Shown in pieces: positions 3,436-42,632 of a DNA stretch of 64,000 nt. Origin of the DNA: Candidatus Gottesmanbacteria bacterium (GTDB taxonomy: Bacteria > Patescibacteriota > Microgenomatia > 2-02-FULL-39-11); the NCBI GenBank assembly GCA_016186795.1, contig JACPKY010000001.1, forward strand, positions 65,357 through 129,356, in the 5' to 3' direction. The notes below the pieces were generated by a model. The model saw only the letters and a list, made by a program, of their open reading frames with translations. It made no database searches and was not told the DNA's origin. Each line of letters begins with the position of its first letter. Within the stretch, counting starts at the first letter, position 1. A program made the position numbers and the translations under genes.

Positions 3436-6006
3436 TCATCTGCCAAATCGAGATCGGATCTCTTGGGTAGAAAGTACCCCACGATACATTTGCACTTCGT
3501 CAAGCGCCCCATCATAATAAAGTCCTTCAGGACCAATGGCACCAAAATAGAGATTCCTTGCTGAACTGTACTTTATTTCACCAGAAACTGATTTTGATGC
3601 TTTCTTTGCTCCATCGATATACAAAGCCATTTCTCCACTTCCGTAGGTACCAACTACTGAGTGCCATGTACCATCTAGAATAAGATTTTGAGGAAGTGAA
3701 AGTGAATCAGAGGTAATTTGCCCCTTCCCTACCAAAAAGTAAACAGTGTCTCGATACGTTCGAAATGTAATACCACTATAGGAAACAATATCGGTATTGG
3801 TGAAAAAATATTGACTACTACTGAATCCACCCAAATATTTTTGCGGAACTTGGGTATAATCAAATCCTGAAGGCCCAGGTGGTGGAACACCTTTTACCCA
3901 AAATCCAACAGTGAATGATTGCGGCTTGAGATTCTGGTTCATTGGAATTTCCACATATGACTTTTTGTTCCTGTCAAACACCCGCGCCAATCCCTCTTTT
4001 CCATTGGTAATTGTTGTTTGATAGGCAGTTCCATCATGATTTTTTTTGCTATCGCTTACGTTGTTTCCGGAATTTTCATCCATCTTCCAATCAGCTAAAA
4101 ATGTAGTATTTGCCGAAAGTGTAGGAGTTGGAGTACGGTTAGCCTGAATTGGTGTAGGTGTCTTTGTTGGTTGACCGGGGATAAGTGTCGGAGTCGGTGT
4201 TTTTGTCGGTTGTCCAGGTATAGTGGGTGTGGGAGTTCGTGTGGGAGTAGAAGGCTGCGTCGGTGTTGGCGTCTTGGAAGGATGTGGTGTTTGAGTGGTC
4301 GGAGTAGGAGTCGGGTTACCGCACTGGGGAGTTTTCCTGGCAACATGAGTACATGTTTGGAGTCCAGGTGGCTGCTGTACTATTTCGGTTGCCTCAACAA
4401 CTTTCCGCACCTGGTCACATGTTGATCCTGTTTTATAAAGATCATTGCAAGAACGCTTGAGGGCCTCTGCCATGTCTCGGAAGTTTGAACCTGCAGATAA
4501 ATATTTGTCCATCGCCCTATAAACAATTTGTATGGCTTTTTGTCTCTCAATACCTTGCATCGTGCACCCATTAAACGAACCTCCTTCTACGAGAAGATAG
4601 TACGTCTTATTCATAACTCCACTATTTGTATGCACCCCACCCGCATCGCTTGTACCACAATAGTAATAATTCGAATAGAGCCTGTCTGGATCGGATTTTT
4701 TGGGCGGATCATCCATGTATCGAAAAGGAGCATTGGGAATACTAGTATTTTCTCCTATCATCCAGTTTCCATCCATTTCCGATCCCATAATATCTGCCCA
4801 TGACTCATCAAGAGCTCCGGATTGGTTTTTGTAGACAAAATTCGATGTATAATCCGTCACTCCGTGCCCGAATTCATGACCAATAACATCGTACGCTACC
4901 ATTCCATTACAAAGCCTCATATGATCTCCATACCACCAAGCGTTTGGACAATACGGTGTAGTAGAGTCAACATGTACCCATGCCCGTTGTTTGGCTCCAT
5001 GATTATCGTAACTGTTCCGATGAAGTGTCTTGGAAACATAGTTGTATACGCTCCCCAATACGTCATATGAACCATCGACATCTGCATCGCCGTATGCAGG
5101 CTGTCCTTCTGTTCGCACAATTGGACACCCTCCGACGTTACAGTCTTTTATCTCCCGATTTGCCTCTTTCAGAAGAGATTCTTCGAAAATAACTGTTCCA
5201 TTTGACCTCTCAATAAAATATTTCATGGCAACTTGGGGATTTTCCGACTCTTCTTCGACGAAAACAGCAAACGTACTGTAGTTCGTCTCATCGTCAGAAA
5301 CGCCCAAGATACTTAAGTTGACAATGTATGGTTCTACTTTCATGACGCGGAAACCTTGAGCATTAGGATAGTCACTTTTTGCTTTCCCAAGAGCAATTCC
5401 TCTCGCCTGATCCTCAGAAATTGTTTGGACAGTTACTTCTGTACTTGTAGTGAGTGTTGCATCAATGGCATAAATCTCATTCCCATGACGCTCATGAAGA
5501 ATCATCTGCGCTGCGTATACTGGAGTTCCTCCAATTGTTTGCGTGTAAAAATAATGCTCCCCTTGCTTTTCAGGTGGTACCTCGGAGGTAGAATCTTCAG
5601 AATCGAGAATGACCCGAGAAAGTGTTGAGGAGGAAAAAAACCCGTCTGGAACAATCTTTACGAAGTCATCTCCACCCACTACCCTTCCCATAATTCCAAC
5701 CGTATTCCTGCCACTGGGAGCAGAATACGAAGGTGGGGAATTTAAAAATTCTGCAATCCCTGCTGCCCCTGACGATTGTGTCGTATAGAGATTTCCCTCC
5801 TCTGAATACAGAGAGTAACGCATTACTTTTGTTCCTGACGAAAAATACGAACCTCCAGAAAGGGCCGACGTATTGAGTGTTTTTAATGTTTGGGCTTTTC
5901 CCTGAAAGTAGGAACTGGTAGAAACGACCAATCCTGCGGTGATCAGGTTAAGGAGAAATAGAAGAAGAATCTTTGTGTTAAAAAGGTGATATCGACTTTT
6001 TTTCAT
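3436..6006 (-). CDS. Secreted thermolysin-like zinc metalloprotease (peptidase M4) with Pro/Thr linker and C-terminal LamG/ConA-like lectin domain
   Basis: Signal peptide/TM (ILLLFLLNLITAGLVV). M4 zinc-binding signature VIGHEFGHGVTDYTSNFVYKNQSGALDESWADIMG (HExxH plus ExxxD). Long PTPTxT linker (NPTPTPTTQTPHPSKTPTPT...). C-terminal WKMDENSGNNVSD...WHSVVGTYGSGEMALYIDG...LDEVQMYRGVLSTQEI module is paralogous to the C-terminus of the S8 protease. Confidence 0.8.
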   Translation of the reverse strand: MKKSRYHLFNTKILLLFLLNLITAGLVVSTSSYFQGKAQTLKTLNTSALSGGSYFSSGTKVMRYSLYSEEGNLYTTQSSGAAGIAEFLNSPPSYSAPSGRNTVGIMGRVVGGDDFVKIVPDGFFSSSTLSRVILDSEDSTSEVPPEKQGEHYFYTQTIGGTPVYAAQMILHERHGNEIYAIDATLTTSTEVTVQTISEDQARGIALGKAKSDYPNAQGFRVMKVEPYIVNLSILGVSDDETNYSTFAVFVEEESENPQVAMKYFIERSNGTVIFEESLLKEANREIKDCNVGGCPIVRTEGQPAYGDADVDGSYDVLGSVYNYVSKTLHRNSYDNHGAKQRAWVHVDSTTPYCPNAWWYGDHMRLCNGMVAYDVIGHEFGHGVTDYTSNFVYKNQSGALDESWADIMGSEMDGNWMIGENTSIPNAPFRYMDDPPKKSDPDRLYSNYYYCGTSDAGGVHTNSGVMNKTYYLLVEGGSFNGCTMQGIERQKAIQIVYRAMDKYLSAGSNFRDMAEALKRSCNDLYKTGSTCDQVRKVVEATEIVQQPPGLQTCTHVARKTPQCGNPTPTPTTQTPHPSKTPTPTQPSTPTRTPTPTIPGQPTKTPTPTLIPGQPTKTPTPIQANRTPTPTLSANTTFLADWKMDENSGNNVSDSKKNHDGTAYQTTITNGKEGLARVFDRNKKSYVEIPMNQNLKPQSFTVGFWVKGVPPPGPSGFDYTQVPQKYLGGFSSSQYFFTNTDIVSYSGITFRTYRDTVYFLVGKGQITSDSLSLPQNLILDGTWHSVVGTYGSGEMALYIDGAKKASKSVSGEIKYSSARNLYFGAIGPEGLYYDGALDEVQMYRGVLSTQEIRSRFGR

Positions 6007-7261: not shown

Positions 7262-9310
7262 TTAACATCCACCACCACATTTACACTGACCATTCGGGCA
7301 ACATACCGGATTATTATTCTCGCAAGGATAGCTATCACAACTGCCTGGATTGAAATTACATCCACCACCACCATCACCGGTACAACGTCCGCAGCAACCG
7401 CCATTACAGCCATAACCTGGCTCTTTATTACAACACTGTTCTGGACTTGAACAGCCTGAATGGCCATTGGGAACGCAGTAGGGCGGTTCTGTAGGTTCAG
7501 CTTTTTTTCCGCCGACGCAGTCATACCCCCATGTTTTGCTGGCATCAACGTACACACAGTAAACAGTTCCATCGGGGCATTCTGGCTTATCACCGCTACA
7601 TTTACTCTCATCAATCACTCGACAGATTGGTTCCCACGTATCATCTTCTTTCTGTGCACAGAGGATTGTTCCGGTGGAAGGACACGAAGGAGCAGTTTTC
7701 CCTTCACATTTATCCGCGTTCGGATCTACATCACATACGTCATCATTCCATTCCCACTTATCTTCCTCATCTTCTCCAACATTGATACACTCTTTGGCTT
7801 CCTCACAGGGTTTTTCCACATCCTTACACTCCTCTCCGTCGCTACTTACCGGATAACAATTTAATTTATATTTTCCGGAATCTTCCGAATCCTCTTCACA
7901 TTTGGTAGAATATTTTTTCCCGTCATCTGGACAATCTGCAGTCTGTCCCTCACATTTGTCTTTCGTAGTTGGAGGTGAAGTTGAGGCGGCAACACATGCT
8001 CCGGCAACACATGTTCGTTTGGGATCGTATGAGGCGCAATCTTCTCCAGTATCTTGCCATTTATAGGAAGTTTTTGTGTCATCGGGATCTGTATCAACAC
8101 ATGCTTGGGGATTCTTTGAACTAGGTGAACATCTCCTCTCGTTATTCGCAACTGCTACCTGATCACATTCGCTCTTAGTACTGTCTCCGCATGTGGCGTC
8201 TTTATCTGCTGCTGGTTGTATACAGTATGGTCCGTTGCATGAAACCTTGTCCTTTTTATAGCGGTGACTACTCGTATCACATTCCCAGTATCCACTTCGA
8301 TCACCCGTACAGGTATTGACACTACATGATGCTGGACTTTGAGAGAATGGCACGCACCCGGTTCCCTCAACACAATCCTCTTCGGAACCACAATCTTTCT
8401 TGGTGAGAGTTTTTCCATCGCTACTGCAGGAAACTTGGCGCTTTTTCCTCTGTCCCATGTCCTGGCAGGTAATCCCATTATTTTTGGCTTCATAGGTACA
8501 AAGCGTATCATCACATTTGCCGGTGGATTGGTTACATACTTTTCCATTAAGACAACCGTTGGGATCGGCAACCCACTGATTGCCGCTACTGCAGTTGTAC
8601 AATTTTCCATTAAAACATGCGGTGGTGTCATTGTCTGAATCACATGCCTTCTCCTTTTTTGGTTTACATTCGGCCTTGTCTGTACAATACTGGCTGTCTG
8701 CATCACACGGCGGATTAATATCGATCCAATTAGTCGAGTATTTGGGGCACTTTGATCGATAAATAACATTGTCCACCGGAGTGCAGTCATACAACTCTTC
8801 GGTGTTATTCCCATCGCACCCATCCGTCCCCAATGCACTTATATACTGCGCTTTCCCTGCTGCGGCAAGCTGATTATTGGCACAGAGTTGATTGCAGGCA
8901 ATTTTGTCATCAAGACTATCACTGTAAAACTGGCACGTCGACATCTGGTTGGTAAATAAATCTCGTTCGCAATATCCGTTCGTATTACAAACAAGGCATT
9001 GCCGAACCAAACTTGCCCCAGGTTGTTCAAGCTGCGTATCATCTCCAATCCCAATCCCCAGAAACGGTCCTTCAAAAATTGCTCTGGGGTTCATTGTAAA
9101 CACTCGTACAGTCATTGATCCGGCGTAAAAAGAGGCAAGGAGTGTTACTAAAACAAGAAGGAGAAGAAGAATCAGGGGAAACCGATGGTTTGACTCCAGA
9201 TGATGTTTCATCTGGTTCCATCGGGAAGACTTTTTCACTTGCATAGAAAACAGAGTGCTTTTACATGCACCCCTTTCTTCTAGTAAATGCTTTTTCCTTA
9301 GTCTTGTCAA
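7262..9310 (-). CDS. Large secreted, very cysteine-rich acidic protein (682 aa; roughly 90 Cys by eye)
   Basis: N-terminal TM/signal (FPLILLLLLVLVTLLASFYAG; alternative internal starts at MQVKK or MKHHLE are possible). The remainder is D/E/K/C-rich with dense CxxxC/CxC spacing. It ends in CCNKEPGYGCNGGCCGRCTGDGGGGCNFNPGSCDSYPCENNNPVCCPNGQCKCGGGC. No enzymatic motif. Confidence 0.6.
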   Translation of the reverse strand: MTRLRKKHLLEERGACKSTLFSMQVKKSSRWNQMKHHLESNHRFPLILLLLLVLVTLLASFYAGSMTVRVFTMNPRAIFEGPFLGIGIGDDTQLEQPGASLVRQCLVCNTNGYCERDLFTNQMSTCQFYSDSLDDKIACNQLCANNQLAAAGKAQYISALGTDGCDGNNTEELYDCTPVDNVIYRSKCPKYSTNWIDINPPCDADSQYCTDKAECKPKKEKACDSDNDTTACFNGKLYNCSSGNQWVADPNGCLNGKVCNQSTGKCDDTLCTYEAKNNGITCQDMGQRKKRQVSCSSDGKTLTKKDCGSEEDCVEGTGCVPFSQSPASCSVNTCTGDRSGYWECDTSSHRYKKDKVSCNGPYCIQPAADKDATCGDSTKSECDQVAVANNERRCSPSSKNPQACVDTDPDDTKTSYKWQDTGEDCASYDPKRTCVAGACVAASTSPPTTKDKCEGQTADCPDDGKKYSTKCEEDSEDSGKYKLNCYPVSSDGEECKDVEKPCEEAKECINVGEDEEDKWEWNDDVCDVDPNADKCEGKTAPSCPSTGTILCAQKEDDTWEPICRVIDESKCSGDKPECPDGTVYCVYVDASKTWGYDCVGGKKAEPTEPPYCVPNGHSGCSSPEQCCNKEPGYGCNGGCCGRCTGDGGGGCNFNPGSCDSYPCENNNPVCCPNGQCKCGGGC

Positions 9311-9475
9311 GAATTATTCATATCCAAACCCTATTCAGAAAGTCCTCTTTTTGGTACAATACCTTGCACCTATACTCTTCTTACTGTATTTTGCAACTTT
9401 TTCGTAAGAAAAATGTTGCTAAATCAGTCTAGAAGGAGTTATACCCGTAACAATTTCAATTGTGAAGGGTATATC

Positions 9476-9549
9476 GCCTCCTTAGCTCAGTGGCAGAGCG
9501 ACGGTTTTGTAAACCGCTGATGACAGTTCGATTCTGTCAGGAGGCTCCA
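9476..9549 (+). tRNA. tRNA-Thr (anticodon UGU), CCA encoded
   Basis: Manual cloverleaf: acceptor GCCTCCT/AGGAGGC, D-arm GCTC-AGTGGCA-GAGC, anticodon stem ACGGT/ACCGC with loop TTTGTAA (anticodon TGT), T-arm GACAG-TTCGATT-CTGTC, discriminator T followed by CCA. Confidence 0.8.
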
Positions 9550-10053
9550 GCTGAGGTGGCGGAGTGGACAACTAAATTTTTTGATTTAGAATACATACAT
9601 CATGTAGCCACATTGATAAAAAAACTTTTTGGTATTGATTCAAAGATAGCAACATCGAACAGTGGGTATTACGTGGTATATTTTGGCTCAACGGAGACGG
9701 TACGATGGTTACTTGGAATGGGACTGGTCTTCAATAAGGTTAAGAGCCAAGTCAATGCACCGGATTGGATACTTTCTCAGAAAGAGTATATGAAATTTTT
9801 CTTAAAGGGATTTTTTGATACTGATGGCTCAGTATATAAATTACGATTTGGTATCCAATTGTCCTTTACGAACAGATCAATACCCTTATTGAATTCGTTG
9901 CGACGTTGTCTTTTCGTACTTGGTTTCAAACCATCAATTATCAGCTGTTACCATATATACTTGACAAGACGTGATGATGTGAGTAAGTTTTTCCGAGAAG
10001 TTGGTCCTGCAAACAAGAAACATAGAGAAAGATTTCGACTATTCCATATGTGA
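9490..10053 (+). CDS. LAGLIDADG homing-endonuclease-like ORF (possibly N-terminally degenerate; true start probably downstream of the tRNA overlap)
   Basis: Contains ...SQKEYMKFFLKGFFDTDGSVYKLRF..., a classic LAGLIDADG block (hydrophobic-K/A-G-F-x-D-x-D-G-S). Only one clear motif is present, at about residue 112. The annotated ATG lies inside tRNA-Thr, so the N-terminus is uncertain. It is intergenic between two tRNAs. Confidence 0.5.
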   Translation: MAERRFCKPLMTVRFCQEAPAEVAEWTTKFFDLEYIHHVATLIKKLFGIDSKIATSNSGYYVVYFGSTETVRWLLGMGLVFNKVKSQVNAPDWILSQKEYMKFFLKGFFDTDGSVYKLRFGIQLSFTNRSIPLLNSLRRCLFVLGFKPSIISCYHIYLTRRDDVSKFFREVGPANKKHRERFRLFHM

Positions 10054-10066
10054 GATGCCCTTATTA

Positions 10067-10149
10067 GCCAGGATGGCTGAGTGGACTAAAGCACGAGACT
10101 GTAAATCTCGCGCCGTAAGGCTTCCTAGGTTCGAATCCTAGTCCTGGCA
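10067..10149 (+). tRNA. tRNA-Tyr (anticodon GUA), long variable arm, no encoded CCA
   Basis: Acceptor GCCAGGA/TCCTGGC, anticodon stem CGAGA/TCTCG with loop CTGTAAA (anticodon GTA), long variable arm CGCCGTAAGGCTTC, T-arm CTAGG-TTCGAAT-CCTAG, discriminator A. Confidence 0.8.
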
Positions 10150-10185
10150 CTGAAGAGGATTTTGGCCCATGTCAGTTTAGACATG

Positions 10186-10722
10186 TCACTTTAGGATAGT
10201 GATATTTGGTTGGCCAATCGGCAGATCTGATTTGGCCGGATCCCAAAGTAAGTAAACTTTCCCATACGTCTCATTTAACATTTCCACCACTTTGGCTGCT
10301 TCCGTTTCTGATAAATCAGGAAGTTTCGCATTGATTTTGGGAATCTCCTCTCTATGATAATGCCACAACTTTTGTTCGCCAGCGGTTAATCCTTTCCACG
10401 TATTTGTATCGACCACCGTCTCTACTCCTACAAGTCTTGCGTCTTTATCATCTGAATCGTACAGCTGACACTCAAACATACCGCCTTTGACCTGTTTACA
10501 GAAGTGATGTGCTATTTTTTTCTCATCAGCTGGGAAATGTTTCTCTGCATCAATATGAAGAGTAAATCCTTGGTATGGTTTATTTTCTACCTGAGTCATG
10601 GGAGAAGGCTGTGGTGTTTGTGTTGTTGTAGGGCTAACAGTTGCACCGCCTCTTACTACATATCCTAAAACTGCGCCAACGATCAGTACTACTCCTAGCA
10701 TCATCCATTTATTTTGTTCCAT
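10186..10722 (-). CDS. Hypothetical membrane-anchored protein (about 179 aa from the internal start)
   Basis: Best start is MEQNKWMMLGVVLIVGAVLG (TM helix), preceded by an AAGGAAGGGGGTGAG RBS on the minus strand. The longer ORF to 10860 lacks an RBS. Thr/Pro linker, then a His-rich soluble domain (HHFC...WHYH). Confidence 0.45.
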   Translation of the reverse strand: MEQNKWMMLGVVLIVGAVLGYVVRGGATVSPTTTQTPQPSPMTQVENKPYQGFTLHIDAEKHFPADEKKIAHHFCKQVKGGMFECQLYDSDDKDARLVGVETVVDTNTWKGLTAGEQKLWHYHREEIPKINAKLPDLSETEAAKVVEMLNETYGKVYLLWDPAKSDLPIGQPNITILK

Positions 10723-10810
10723 GTTTTTGGAACTCACCCCCTTCCTTTGTGATATACGCCACAACAAGTTTTTACTATAAAACTTTACCTTTTGCAATCT
10801 GGTATAATAA

Positions 10811-11023
10811 TTGTGTATGAAAAACGTCATTTCGATGCCGAAAGTATTCCAAGACCCCAAGTATCGGGGAAAACATATTATTCTCGCAGCTGGAAAAGTA
10901 TATACGGCTACTACTGGTGAGCAAGCGGCAAAAATTTTGAAGCGTCTGGAAAAAACACACCCCGAAGTAACCCCAGAAGTGGCCTATCTCCCCAAAGCTC
11001 GTTCCCTTATCTTATGGATGTAA
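10811..11023 (+). CDS. Small hypothetical protein (about 60-70 aa), conserved-looking partner of the downstream aspartic protease
   Basis: MPKVFQDPKYRGKHIILAAGKVYTATTGEQAAKILKRLEKTHPEVTPEVAYLP. Overlaps the start of the retropepsin-like gene by 10 nt, which suggests translational coupling. Confidence 0.45.
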   Translation: MCMKNVISMPKVFQDPKYRGKHIILAAGKVYTATTGEQAAKILKRLEKTHPEVTPEVAYLPKARSLILWM

Positions 11024-42081: not shown

Positions 42082-42590
42082 GTACGTTGATAAGTGTTCA
42101 CATGCAGCACTTCCTTCCTGTTTCTTGATTGAAGGTATGAAACACCTGAAGCTTGGTAATGTAGAAAAGGGGAAAGTTAACTTGGCTGTCTATCAAGGCA
42201 GGTTCCAAATATTATTTTGCAAATATCTAAAACTCCTGATTCCGCTGGTACAAGCTGGCTTACAGAAGGCCAATAAACCAGCGGAACCAAGAGTCTTAGT
42301 TCTGTAATTTGCTTGTTTTTTAAAGTGCTATTTTTCTAGAATCATTTTATCAAAAAAGCAGATGCAGTCAAGTAGTTCTGTGATATTTCTTCATAAATAG
42401 AAAAATGAGGCTAGATAAAAGTACTTTTCATTTACGTGTTCTCCCTACATATGTGCCGGAAGAACCTATTGCTAAAGTTGAACCCTTATGATATAAATAC
42501 CTTTATCCAAAGACAGTAGGCAACCATAAGACCTACCGAGGAAAAATTAGTATCTAGTATTTGGTATCAAGTATTTAGAAGATTAATTTA

Positions 42591-42613
42591 CCTCGGAAAT
42601 CCGAGGTTTTTTG
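42591..42613 (+). terminator. Hairpin plus T-run immediately upstream of rplJ (leader attenuator or terminator)
   Basis: cctcggaaatccgaggttttttg: stem CCTCGG/CCGAGG, loop AAAT, then T6. It ends 20 nt before the rplJ start. Confidence 0.4.
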
Positions 42614-42632
42614 TTATTTGTTTTCTGAAACT

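Follow-up and report, generated by a model that had tools for sequence, protein, structure and literature searches.

A 5'-truncated LAGLIDADG endonuclease gene between tRNA-Thr and tRNA-Tyr in a Candidatus Gottesmanbacteria genome, probably what is left of a mobile, tRNA-Tyr-specific cassette

Genes and features between tRNA-Thr and tRNA-Tyr

The 64,000-nt stretch of DNA analysed here (the window; positions 65,357 to 129,356, forward strand, of contig JACPKY010000001.1, GenBank assembly GCA_016186795.1) belongs to a Candidatus Gottesmanbacteria metagenome-assembled genome (MAG) of the Patescibacteria, or Candidate Phyla Radiation (CPR), and was found to carry part of a LAGLIDADG endonuclease gene between a tRNA-Thr(UGU) and a tRNA-Tyr(GUA) gene. 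The only long open reading frame (ORF) between the two tRNA genes, on either strand, runs from a GTG at 9490 to 10053 on the forward strand (564 nt, 187 aa). NCBI annotates the same frame as the 177-aa 'hypothetical protein HYW55_00340', the ATG of which, by arithmetic from its length, is at 9520. Both candidate starts lie inside the mature tRNA-Thr, which has its CCA encoded at 9547-9549, and tRNA-Tyr begins 13 nt past the stop of the ORF. The features of the locus, each with the evidence for it, are as follows.

9476..9549, + strand: tRNA-Thr(UGU), intact (ARAGORN tRNA-Thr(tgt); Rfam tRNA, 66.3 bits; ORF list)
9550..9572, + strand: displaced tRNA-Tyr 5' stub, GCTGAGGTGGCGGAGTGGACAAC (pattern searches, shuffles, comparison with other loci)
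9557..9587, + strand: leader remnant of the putative cassette, overlapping the stub (local alignment to leaders upstream of full-length genes)
9588..9591, + strand: deletion junction (protein alignment, DNA alignment, local-alignment coordinates)
9592..10053, + strand: endonuclease remnant, codons ~107-261 of full-length relatives (Pfam LAGLIDADG_3; alignments)
10067..10150, + strand: tRNA-Tyr(GUA), intact, functional gene (ARAGORN tRNA-Tyr(gta); Rfam tRNA, 61.4 bits)

The motif KFFLKGFFDTDGSV occupies about residues 101-114 of the 187-aa ORF, and there is no second LAGLIDADG motif. The match to the Pfam family LAGLIDADG_3 (PF14528) covers residues 101-172 and, at 44.9 bits (E=1.4e-11), exceeds the cut-off of 22.5. 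An earlier reading made without database searches (the sequence-only reading) had described a 564-nt ORF with a single LAGLIDADG block, starting within the mature tRNA-Thr and flanked by two intact tRNA genes, and each of these statements held. A match of residues 32-75 to the WhiA-type LAGLIDADG domain (21.8 bits) stayed under its cut-off of 23.2; this segment is the leftover of a first domain minus its motif helix. On the + strand of 9000-10600 no Rfam family except tRNA was found at E<=0.01 and no group I or group II intron family at E<=10, while in gathering mode over the whole window the Thr-Tyr spacer held nothing but the tRNAs.

A protein search with the window ORF disclosed 159 relatives, nearly all of them 258-279 aa long and 50-64% identical over window residues 32-187 (55-64% identity between the 260-aa homologs and the window remnant). 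These homologs carry about 105 extra N-terminal residues, and the window aligns with them from about residue 107 on. At the DNA level, 9557-9587 aligned with the leader upstream of the full-length gene in locus L001 with a score of 37 (shuffles 16.0 +/- 3.1, max 31) and with that of L008 with a score of 32 (shuffles 16.4 +/- 3.0, max 27). Relative to L008, about 342 nt (L008 nt 2162-2503) are absent at 9588-9591, namely the rest of the leader, the start codon, the N-terminal helix-turn-helix (HTH) and the first LAGLIDADG motif (codons 1 to ~106). Homology picks up again at 9592, at codon 107 (YIHHVA versus YSHHVA), and extends through the C-terminal half of LAGLIDADG domain 1 and the whole of domain 2 (motif FFDTDGS) to the TGA at 10051-10053. 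Full-length relatives have two LAGLIDADG domains per chain, each with its motif, and the window copy has motif 2 only; its single motif is the outcome of the ~342-nt deletion in a two-domain gene and not the mark of a single-motif enzyme.

The 153 codons of the remnant retain 45 of the 47 positions that are at least 90% conserved among 76 near-full-length members, so that the deletion looks recent; in an attempt to obtain the ratio of nonsynonymous to synonymous substitution (dN/dS), synonymous sites between the remnant and its nearest relatives were saturated (proportion of synonymous differences, pS, 0.75-0.84). The remnant at 9592-10053 has no usable start codon of its own, nor is there one downstream of the promoter-like site at 9565-9592 described below. 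Established tRNA processing suggests that excision of tRNA-Thr from the transcript would sever both annotated starts. The ORF presumably stays open only since the deletion is recent and the frame happens to extend back into tRNA-Thr. With the start codon lost and the two substitutes cut off in this way, the window ORF is most likely a 5'-truncated, non-functional remnant, and the 'hypothetical protein' overlapping tRNA-Thr is best annotated as a pseudogene.

Independent 5'-truncated copies occur in other species, in L039 (residues ~115-265 only), which is cut nearly at the truncation point of the window copy, and in L041 (residues ~37-264).

The full-length relatives are about 260 aa long and consist of the HTH (about aa 15-50) and the two LAGLIDADG domains, with LAEFxGIMLGDGHL as the first motif. 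Pfam matches in these proteins were HTH_7 (28.5 bits in P0014), the WhiA-type LAGLIDADG domain at 81-148 (31 bits) and LAGLIDADG_3 at 171-244. The AlphaFold2 model of full-length P0008 of Woesebacteria GWA1_41_8 (predicted local distance difference test, pLDDT, 91.4) displays three N-terminal helices followed by two alpha-beta-beta-alpha-beta-beta-alpha domains, and its best PDB matches in Foldseek were the TliVMA intein endonuclease domain (E=7.7e-11), I-Tsp061I, I-DmoI, PI-PfuI and WhiA, the values for monomeric two-domain LAGLIDADG enzymes ranging from E=7.7e-11 to 1e-6. A profile of the full-length relatives retrieved V-ATPase intein entries among the PDB sequences (E=5e-9); the window ORF alone gave no match there at E<=10. 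Both motif aspartates (LGDG and FDTDG) were invariant in 30 sequences, dN/dS among intact members was 0.10-0.23, and in an exhaustive profile search the full-length architecture was shared by about 20-30 clusters formed at 50% identity, with 388 representatives scoring E<1e-30. From domain content and modelled fold, the product of the intact cassette is predicted to be a LAGLIDADG homing endonuclease of about 260 aa that is monomeric and has both domains in one chain.

Position beside tRNA-Tyr, the 5' stub and the D-arm types

A scan of one genome per species (185,579 species genomes) gave 116 hits, and 80 loci from many Patescibacteria lineages were fetched, 79 of them with the motif. In 78 of the 79, tRNA-Tyr(gta) lies directly downstream on the same strand, the exception being at a contig end, and it starts anywhere from 21 nt past the ORF stop codon to 54 nt before the ORF end. 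The same arrangement was found in three further loci with variant motifs and in the homologs located first (Woesebacteria and other contigs), where the gene is also immediately 5' of tRNA-Tyr(gta). As tRNA-Thr(tgt) is upstream in a minority of loci only, the association is with tRNA-Tyr and not with the Thr-Tyr pair. The sequence-only reading had suggested, as one of two options, a free-standing endonuclease aimed at the tRNA cluster; the gene is indeed free-standing, close to the picture given by the family, but the pair is not what it is linked to. The distribution of the family is sporadic (116 of 185,579 species genomes), and close relatives lack the endonuclease.

In about 27 loci (e.g. 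L012, L016, L020, L030, L077) the last 37-38 nt of the ORF overlap tRNA-Tyr, its stop codon being the TAA that the GUA anticodon and A37 form in the anticodon loop. If both are on one transcript, the RNase P cut at the tRNA 5' end would strip this stop codon and yield a non-stop mRNA, which could be an inbuilt brake on expression of the endonuclease.

Central to the mechanism proposed below is the stub at 9550-9572, which is absent from the sequence-only reading. These 23 nt start right after the CCA of tRNA-Thr and comprise an acceptor 5' strand (GCTGAGG), U8, G9, the 5' strand of the D stem and the D loop. The stub 20-mer is unique in the window and found no match at <=3 mismatches in 100 shuffles, and the 18-mer GCTGAGGTGGCGGAGYGG occurs elsewhere only at the 5' ends of functional tRNA-Tyr genes (L001-L005, L009) and in two contigs of the same strain. 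The stub agrees with the window's own tRNA-Tyr at 16 of 23 positions and with other Microgenomates tRNA-Tyr genes at 18-20 of 23; it is a different allele from the tRNA-Tyr that it precedes. In the annotation of this genome the 23 nt following tRNA-Thr can thus be entered as a tRNA-Tyr fragment.

Stubs of this type are a feature of the family. In 39 of 78 loci the 150 nt before the ATG contain GAGTGGTCAATTGCAA (<=3 mismatches), against a background of 0.003 per 150 nt, at a modal distance of 29 nt from the ATG. All of nt 1-26 is preserved in some loci, e.g. L052 (GCGTCGGTGGCAGAGCGGTCAATTGCA) and L047, and nt 1 to ~24 in L055. Compared position by position, the stubs agreed with real tRNA-Tyr at 0.5-0.9 for most of nt 8-26, at low values for the acceptor strand and at background from nt 27, which places the left boundary of the putatively inserted DNA at the junction of D arm and anticodon stem.

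Two other placements of the stub were discarded. MAFFT set it against endonuclease codons (~11/17 identity), and this was overruled by the local alignments and the pattern searches. A split or intron-containing tRNA-Tyr made of the stub and the downstream tRNA was rejected as well, the downstream tRNA being complete, the acceptor pairing poor and the stubs decayed in most loci.

The promoter-like site at 9565-9592 consists of sigma-70-like TGGACA, 16 nt and TAGAAT, with a scan score of 10/12 that expresses consensus match only, and its -35 hexamer TGGACA falls in the D loop of the stub. In the family, TTGCAA is formed by the 3' strand of the D stem and nt 26; a TATAAT-like hexamer stands 16-18 nt after it in 28 of 47 loci (shuffles 7.0 +/- 2.3, max 14), and in 26 of these its end is 6-7 nt from the ATG. 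The D-stem 3' strand of the stub appears to double as the -35-like hexamer of the endonuclease gene. From the short distance between the -10-like box and the ATG a leaderless endonuclease mRNA is predicted, which would read on into tRNA-Tyr, and a promoter role of the stub would account for the conservation of nt 10-26 while nt 1-7 decay.

In L006, L022, L024 and L028 a shared promoter-like TTGACT, 17 nt, TATTAT/TATATT was observed about 57-60 nt after tRNA-Thr(tgt) and before the ATG; in this sublineage the stub appears to have been replaced or lost.

A metagenome scan with the pattern GGTCAATTGC-N6-CTGTA gave at least 120 stretches. Among the matches listed, at least 67 lie in tRNA-Tyr genes that are intact and have a D arm of the stub type, GGCAGAG(T/C)GGTCAATTGCA, an endonuclease was present in none of the 53 stub-type genes with at least 900 nt of upstream sequence, and many of the endonuclease-free contigs are syntenic with endonuclease-bearing loci, at 70-77% DNA identity. 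Sampling with TypA synteny as the sole criterion, independent of the tRNA, gave three endonuclease-free species (L218, L219, L221-224), all of the stub type GGTAGAG(T/C)GGTCAA(T/A)TAC(A/T). Among the 77 endonuclease-bearing loci compared, GGTCAATTGCA precedes nt 27 in none; the modal difference is 4-5 of the 11 nt 5' of nt 27, and the three closest loci differ by a swap at the 10-25 base pair adjoining the junction. Such a distribution would be expected of an enzyme with a recognition site across nt 26/27 and of a carrier allele immune to it.

Presence and absence of the endonuclease at one conserved site, with shared flanks, were disclosed at the family level, L023, L213 and L077 being filled and L212, L113, L218 and L221 empty. 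In the empty L212 tRNA-Tyr lies 28 nt past the stop of the upstream gene; its filled counterpart L023 has a decayed stub in the same place, then the endonuclease gene and then tRNA-Tyr. The two tRNA-Tyr genes share the acceptor stem and differ in the D, anticodon and T stems. The empty L113, the endonuclease-free tRNA-Tyr gene of which contains GGTGGCAGAGTGGTCAATTGCAATTGACTGTAAATC, and the filled L213 both have ClpB, tRNA-Tyr and TypA in this order, with TypA proteins 87% identical, and L113 also pairs with the filled L077 and others.

A GC-rich, structured-looking segment of about 400 nt (~5480-5870) was observed in L164 between the upstream gene and an endonuclease-free tRNA-Tyr; it had no Rfam match at gathering thresholds.

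Proposed mechanism and alternative explanations

Sporadic distribution, truncated copies, invariant aspartates and a gene that is more similar than its flanks all favour a mobile selfish element. Between L020 and L030 the endonuclease gene is 88% identical and the upstream housekeeping flank 70%; over L020, L030 and L036 the values are 83-88% for the gene against ~70-73% for flanking housekeeping DNA, and similarity collapses right after the tRNA-Tyr 3' end. In the window, 9550-10150 is probably (at roughly 0.7) what decay has left of a mobile cassette that specifically targets the tRNA-Tyr gene of the CPR.

It is proposed that the enzyme of an intact cassette would cut an endonuclease-free tRNA-Tyr gene, which would be of the GGCAGAGTGGTCAATTGCA type, near nt 26/27, at the junction of D arm and anticodon stem. 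Repair from a cassette-bearing copy would then insert the leader, the endonuclease gene and either a new tRNA 5' third or a whole new tRNA, and the result would be a dead stub (the old nt 1-26), followed by the endonuclease gene and then by a complete tRNA-Tyr with a different D arm. By this route the recognition site would be destroyed at the stub and altered in the functional gene with tRNA-Tyr function preserved, the replacement should be immune, its D arm differing from the type that is cut, and the orphaned stub would be recycled as the -35 region of the endonuclease promoter. The predicted natural target would span about 20 bp, GGTCAATTGCA on one side of the cut, and the anticodon stem and CTGTAAA on the other.

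The broader claim has odds slightly better than even, namely that this LAGLIDADG family invades an essential, probably single-copy tRNA gene intron-free, splits tRNA-Tyr at nt 26/27, installs a cleavage-resistant replacement and makes the orphaned D arm its promoter, a 'tRNA gene replacement drive' that would force D-arm turnover of tRNA-Tyr across the CPR. If so, it would show how a selfish nuclease can inhabit an indispensable gene of a minimal genome, by bringing the replacement with it. It would also give a concrete hypothesis for the varied tRNA-Tyr D arms in CPR genomes that carry the endonuclease, and the members of the family would offer compact HTH-fused meganuclease scaffolds.

Several observations weigh against a mobile tRNA-Tyr cassette, or against the simplest form of it. 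The target is placed only by where similarity ends, and the endonuclease-free metagenome set was chosen by the D-arm pattern itself, the three species from the TypA sampling being the only ones free of that bias. In the window's own lineage a search by MltG synteny gave no true empty site. In the Thr/Tyr spacers of relatives, the comparison of which the sequence-only reading had proposed, L088 and L089, of the same strain as the window, have the same allele, and the endonuclease-free Gottesmanbacteria L090 and L091 carry an unrelated minus-strand gene between tRNA-Thr and tRNA-Tyr and have other D arms (GGTCTAACGCA and GGCCAAACGGG). The window stub (GCTGAGG...) fits the Woesebacteria-type tRNA-Tyr better than that of L090 and L091. 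Its acceptor strand GCTGAGG mismatches the 3' acceptor strand TCCTGGC of the functional tRNA, so that insertion of a new 5' third would not be enough in the window and either the whole tRNA must have been converted or the stub must have come with the cassette. No recognisable stub was found in L006, L022, L024, L028, L025 and L035. As regards decay of the window copy, a small chance of residual function may be left, given the 45 of 47 conserved residues that are kept. Last, a dN/dS of 0.10-0.23 and strict linkage to tRNA-Tyr (78 of 79 loci) would equally fit a domesticated protein useful to the host.

Such a protein would be a vertically inherited HTH-LAGLIDADG factor for expression or processing of tRNA-Tyr, a WhiA-like regulator or a maturase-like helper, with the stub as its promoter or operator. 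WhiA, which is among the fold matches, is a precedent for a regulator built from HTH and LAGLIDADG; the stub is conserved exactly at the promoter-like element, and between L022 and L024 the endonuclease gene is 79% identical versus 84% for the flanks, a faster divergence of the kind that goes with vertical descent. WhiA, however, has lost the catalytic aspartates, and here both are invariant. Nor does domestication agree with 116 hits in 185,579 species genomes and close relatives devoid of the gene, with 5'-truncated copies in the window, L039 and L041, with a stub that includes a decaying acceptor strand of no promoter role, or with D-arm types that are mutually exclusive between endonuclease-bearing and endonuclease-free loci. 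This alternative is judged unlikely, though it survives better than the others.

Single-motif homodimeric LAGLIDADG enzymes exist, e.g. I-CreI, and the 177-187-aa ORF could be a working protein of this kind, translated from a start within tRNA-Thr: its frame is open over 187 codons and its C-terminal domain is complete, with the 45 of 47 conserved residues. Yet tRNA-Thr and the stub would supply the codons of its N-terminal 20 residues, the start codon would be lost once tRNA-Thr is excised from the transcript, and the sole promoter-like site (9565-9592) is downstream of both starts. Moreover, residues 36-100 form half a domain without the motif helix and the first strands, and all relatives of similar size are fragments or truncations, which makes a working ORF very improbable.

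Still less credible is an intron relic, an ORF left from an intron-encoded endonuclease after loss of the intron from a tRNA or rRNA gene. In the CPR, LAGLIDADG genes are often borne by rRNA insertion sequences or group I introns (PMC11270868), and the fold is closest to intein- and intron-borne enzymes. The sequence-only reading had given, as the first of two options, a degenerated endonuclease remaining after intron loss and had pointed to a group I intron fold in the spacer as a check; degeneration is what was found, and the intron origin fell, Rfam giving no group I or II intron in 9000-10600 at E<=10 and none in six related loci at E<=0.1. In 78 of 79 loci the gene stands free at this one position and is followed by a complete tRNA-Tyr. 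Set against the downstream 3' strand, the stub acceptor gives 3 Watson-Crick pairs, 3 G-U pairs and 1 mismatch, and most loci have a decayed stub, so that stub and tRNA cannot be exons.

Chance resemblance of 9550-9572 to tRNA-Tyr, with the ORF a stray endonuclease pseudogene in a tRNA spacer, is considered rejected: the stub has only 23 nt and MAFFT could align it to endonuclease codons at ~11/17 identity, but 0 of 100 shuffles match it at <=3 mismatches, its 18-mer recurs exactly at the 5' ends of functional tRNA-Tyr genes in other loci, the next 15 nt continue the leader of the homologs, and the same stub is present at a fixed distance in about half of the related loci.

The neighbourhood of the locus holds features apart from the proposed cassette. 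Just upstream of tRNA-Thr, on the minus strand (7262-9310), a 682-aa ORF encodes an extremely cysteine-rich product with Asp/Glu/Lys-rich repeats and an N-terminal hydrophobic segment, which looks like a secreted or surface protein. Directly downstream of tRNA-Tyr, also on the minus strand (10186-10860), lies a gene for a DUF1264-family protein (precomputed Pfam). The sole non-tRNA Rfam match in the window is a ribosomal protein L10 leader (RF00557, 50.8 bits) at 42489-42621 on the + strand. Since the two Logan contigs of the window strain, L088 and L089, begin within tRNA-Thr, it is suggested that assemblies tend to break at the tRNA and endonuclease locus.

In some Paceibacteria-type loci, and outside the window, a structured element of 105-175 nt was observed 130-190 nt downstream of tRNA-Tyr, past a terminator-like hairpin, with the following coordinates.

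L059: 3106-3249
L049: 3086-3232
L213: 1421-1547
L081: 1283-1404
L060: 3087-3191
L064: 3097-3240
L041: 3085-3235
L065: 3102-3249
L033: 3098-3249
L038: 3096-3238
L085: 3095-3268

Its last 18-25 nt are an exact repeat of the 3' end of the tRNA-Tyr that it follows, from the T loop and T stem to the acceptor strand and discriminator. Complementary strands that co-vary with this repeat lie in its 5' part, together with the invariant sequence GGA(C/T)TCGAA and inner hairpins, of which some have a UGUAA loop resembling an anticodon loop. The element had no Rfam match and may be an undescribed tRNA-like RNA derived from tRNA-Tyr. These repeats of the tRNA 3' end (8-12 loci) were considered as the displaced 3' part of a resident gene and set aside as an independent feature, the same element being present in the endonuclease-free L099 and L160.

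Comparison with known systems

With the monomeric enzymes of inteins and introns (the TliVMA and PI-SceI intein domains, I-Tsp061I and I-DmoI) the full-length relatives share the fold and both catalytic aspartates; unlike them, the tRNA-Tyr family has no intein or intron context and adds the N-terminal three-helix HTH. The combination of LAGLIDADG and HTH is that of WhiA, the Pfam model of which matches domain 1 (31 bits), and JGI labels some members 'WhiA'. The HTH of WhiA, however, is C-terminal, and that of the present family is N-terminal; the motif aspartates are kept, the distribution is sporadic, where WhiA is near-universal in its host clade, and the gene is tied to tRNA-Tyr. The family is not a WhiA ortholog.

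Integrase islands insert in tRNA genes and make the interrupted gene whole again with a gene end that they carry themselves, the tRNA 3' end being duplicated as att repeats. The putative cassette resembles them in having a tRNA gene as its target, in that function is kept by sequence borne on the element, and in the partial tRNA duplicate at the boundary. It differs from these tyrosine or serine recombinase elements in its size of about 0.9 kb without an integrase, in encoding a nuclease and in duplicating the 5' end, and the LAGLIDADG ORF is the sole gene between the stub and tRNA-Tyr.

To our knowledge, no earlier LAGLIDADG family has been aimed at a bacterial tRNA gene without an intron. 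Full-text searches of the literature library used returned CPR LAGLIDADG genes described in rRNA insertions only and no tRNA-Tyr-linked family, the main paper on the rRNA genes never mentions tRNA (PMC11270868), and the present family is apparently undescribed. The CPR rRNA endonucleases belong to the same phylum and superfamily and likewise have conserved structural RNA genes as targets; they differ in lying inside 16S and 23S genes and being removed from the RNA, whereas the tRNA-Tyr cassette needs no excision, as a whole tRNA follows it (PMC11270868).

The free-standing endonucleases of T4-like phages (SegB, mobE, SegF/G) cut a nearby endonuclease-free allele and spread by repair with co-conversion of the flanks (PMC2988022, PMC2790892, PMC13096335). 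They too are encoded by intron-less intergenic genes, and SegB sits among tRNA genes. In contrast to the tRNA-Tyr family, they are of the GIY-YIG and HNH families and have phage hosts, their target gene is unsplit, there is no stub, and immunity comes from polymorphism of the neighbouring gene.

By analogy, the closest documented mechanism would be that of the fungal mitochondrial mORFs with gene-end replacement (Allomyces macrogynus atp6; Glomus atp6, atp9, cox2 and nad3), which replace the 3' end of a gene, the native end persisting next to them as a duplicate that is not expressed and diverges (PMC3630166). In both cases a free-standing LAGLIDADG gene (in the mORFs also GIY-YIG) sits in an essential gene with no intron or intein and carries a substitute gene end (PMC3630166). 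A displaced, dead copy of one gene end beside a functional copy was found in the window and in about half of the family loci, and the stubs of the Paceibacteria-type loci agree with the D arm of endonuclease-free relatives, from which the functional copy departs; the window stub, in contrast, is closer to the Woesebacteria-type tRNA-Tyr than to that of the endonuclease-free L090 and L091. Unlike the mORFs, the tRNA-Tyr cassette has a bacterial chromosomal tRNA gene and not a mitochondrial protein gene as its host, it duplicates the 5' and not the 3' end, its protein has the extra N-terminal HTH, and its promoter appears to draw its -35 region from the displaced piece.

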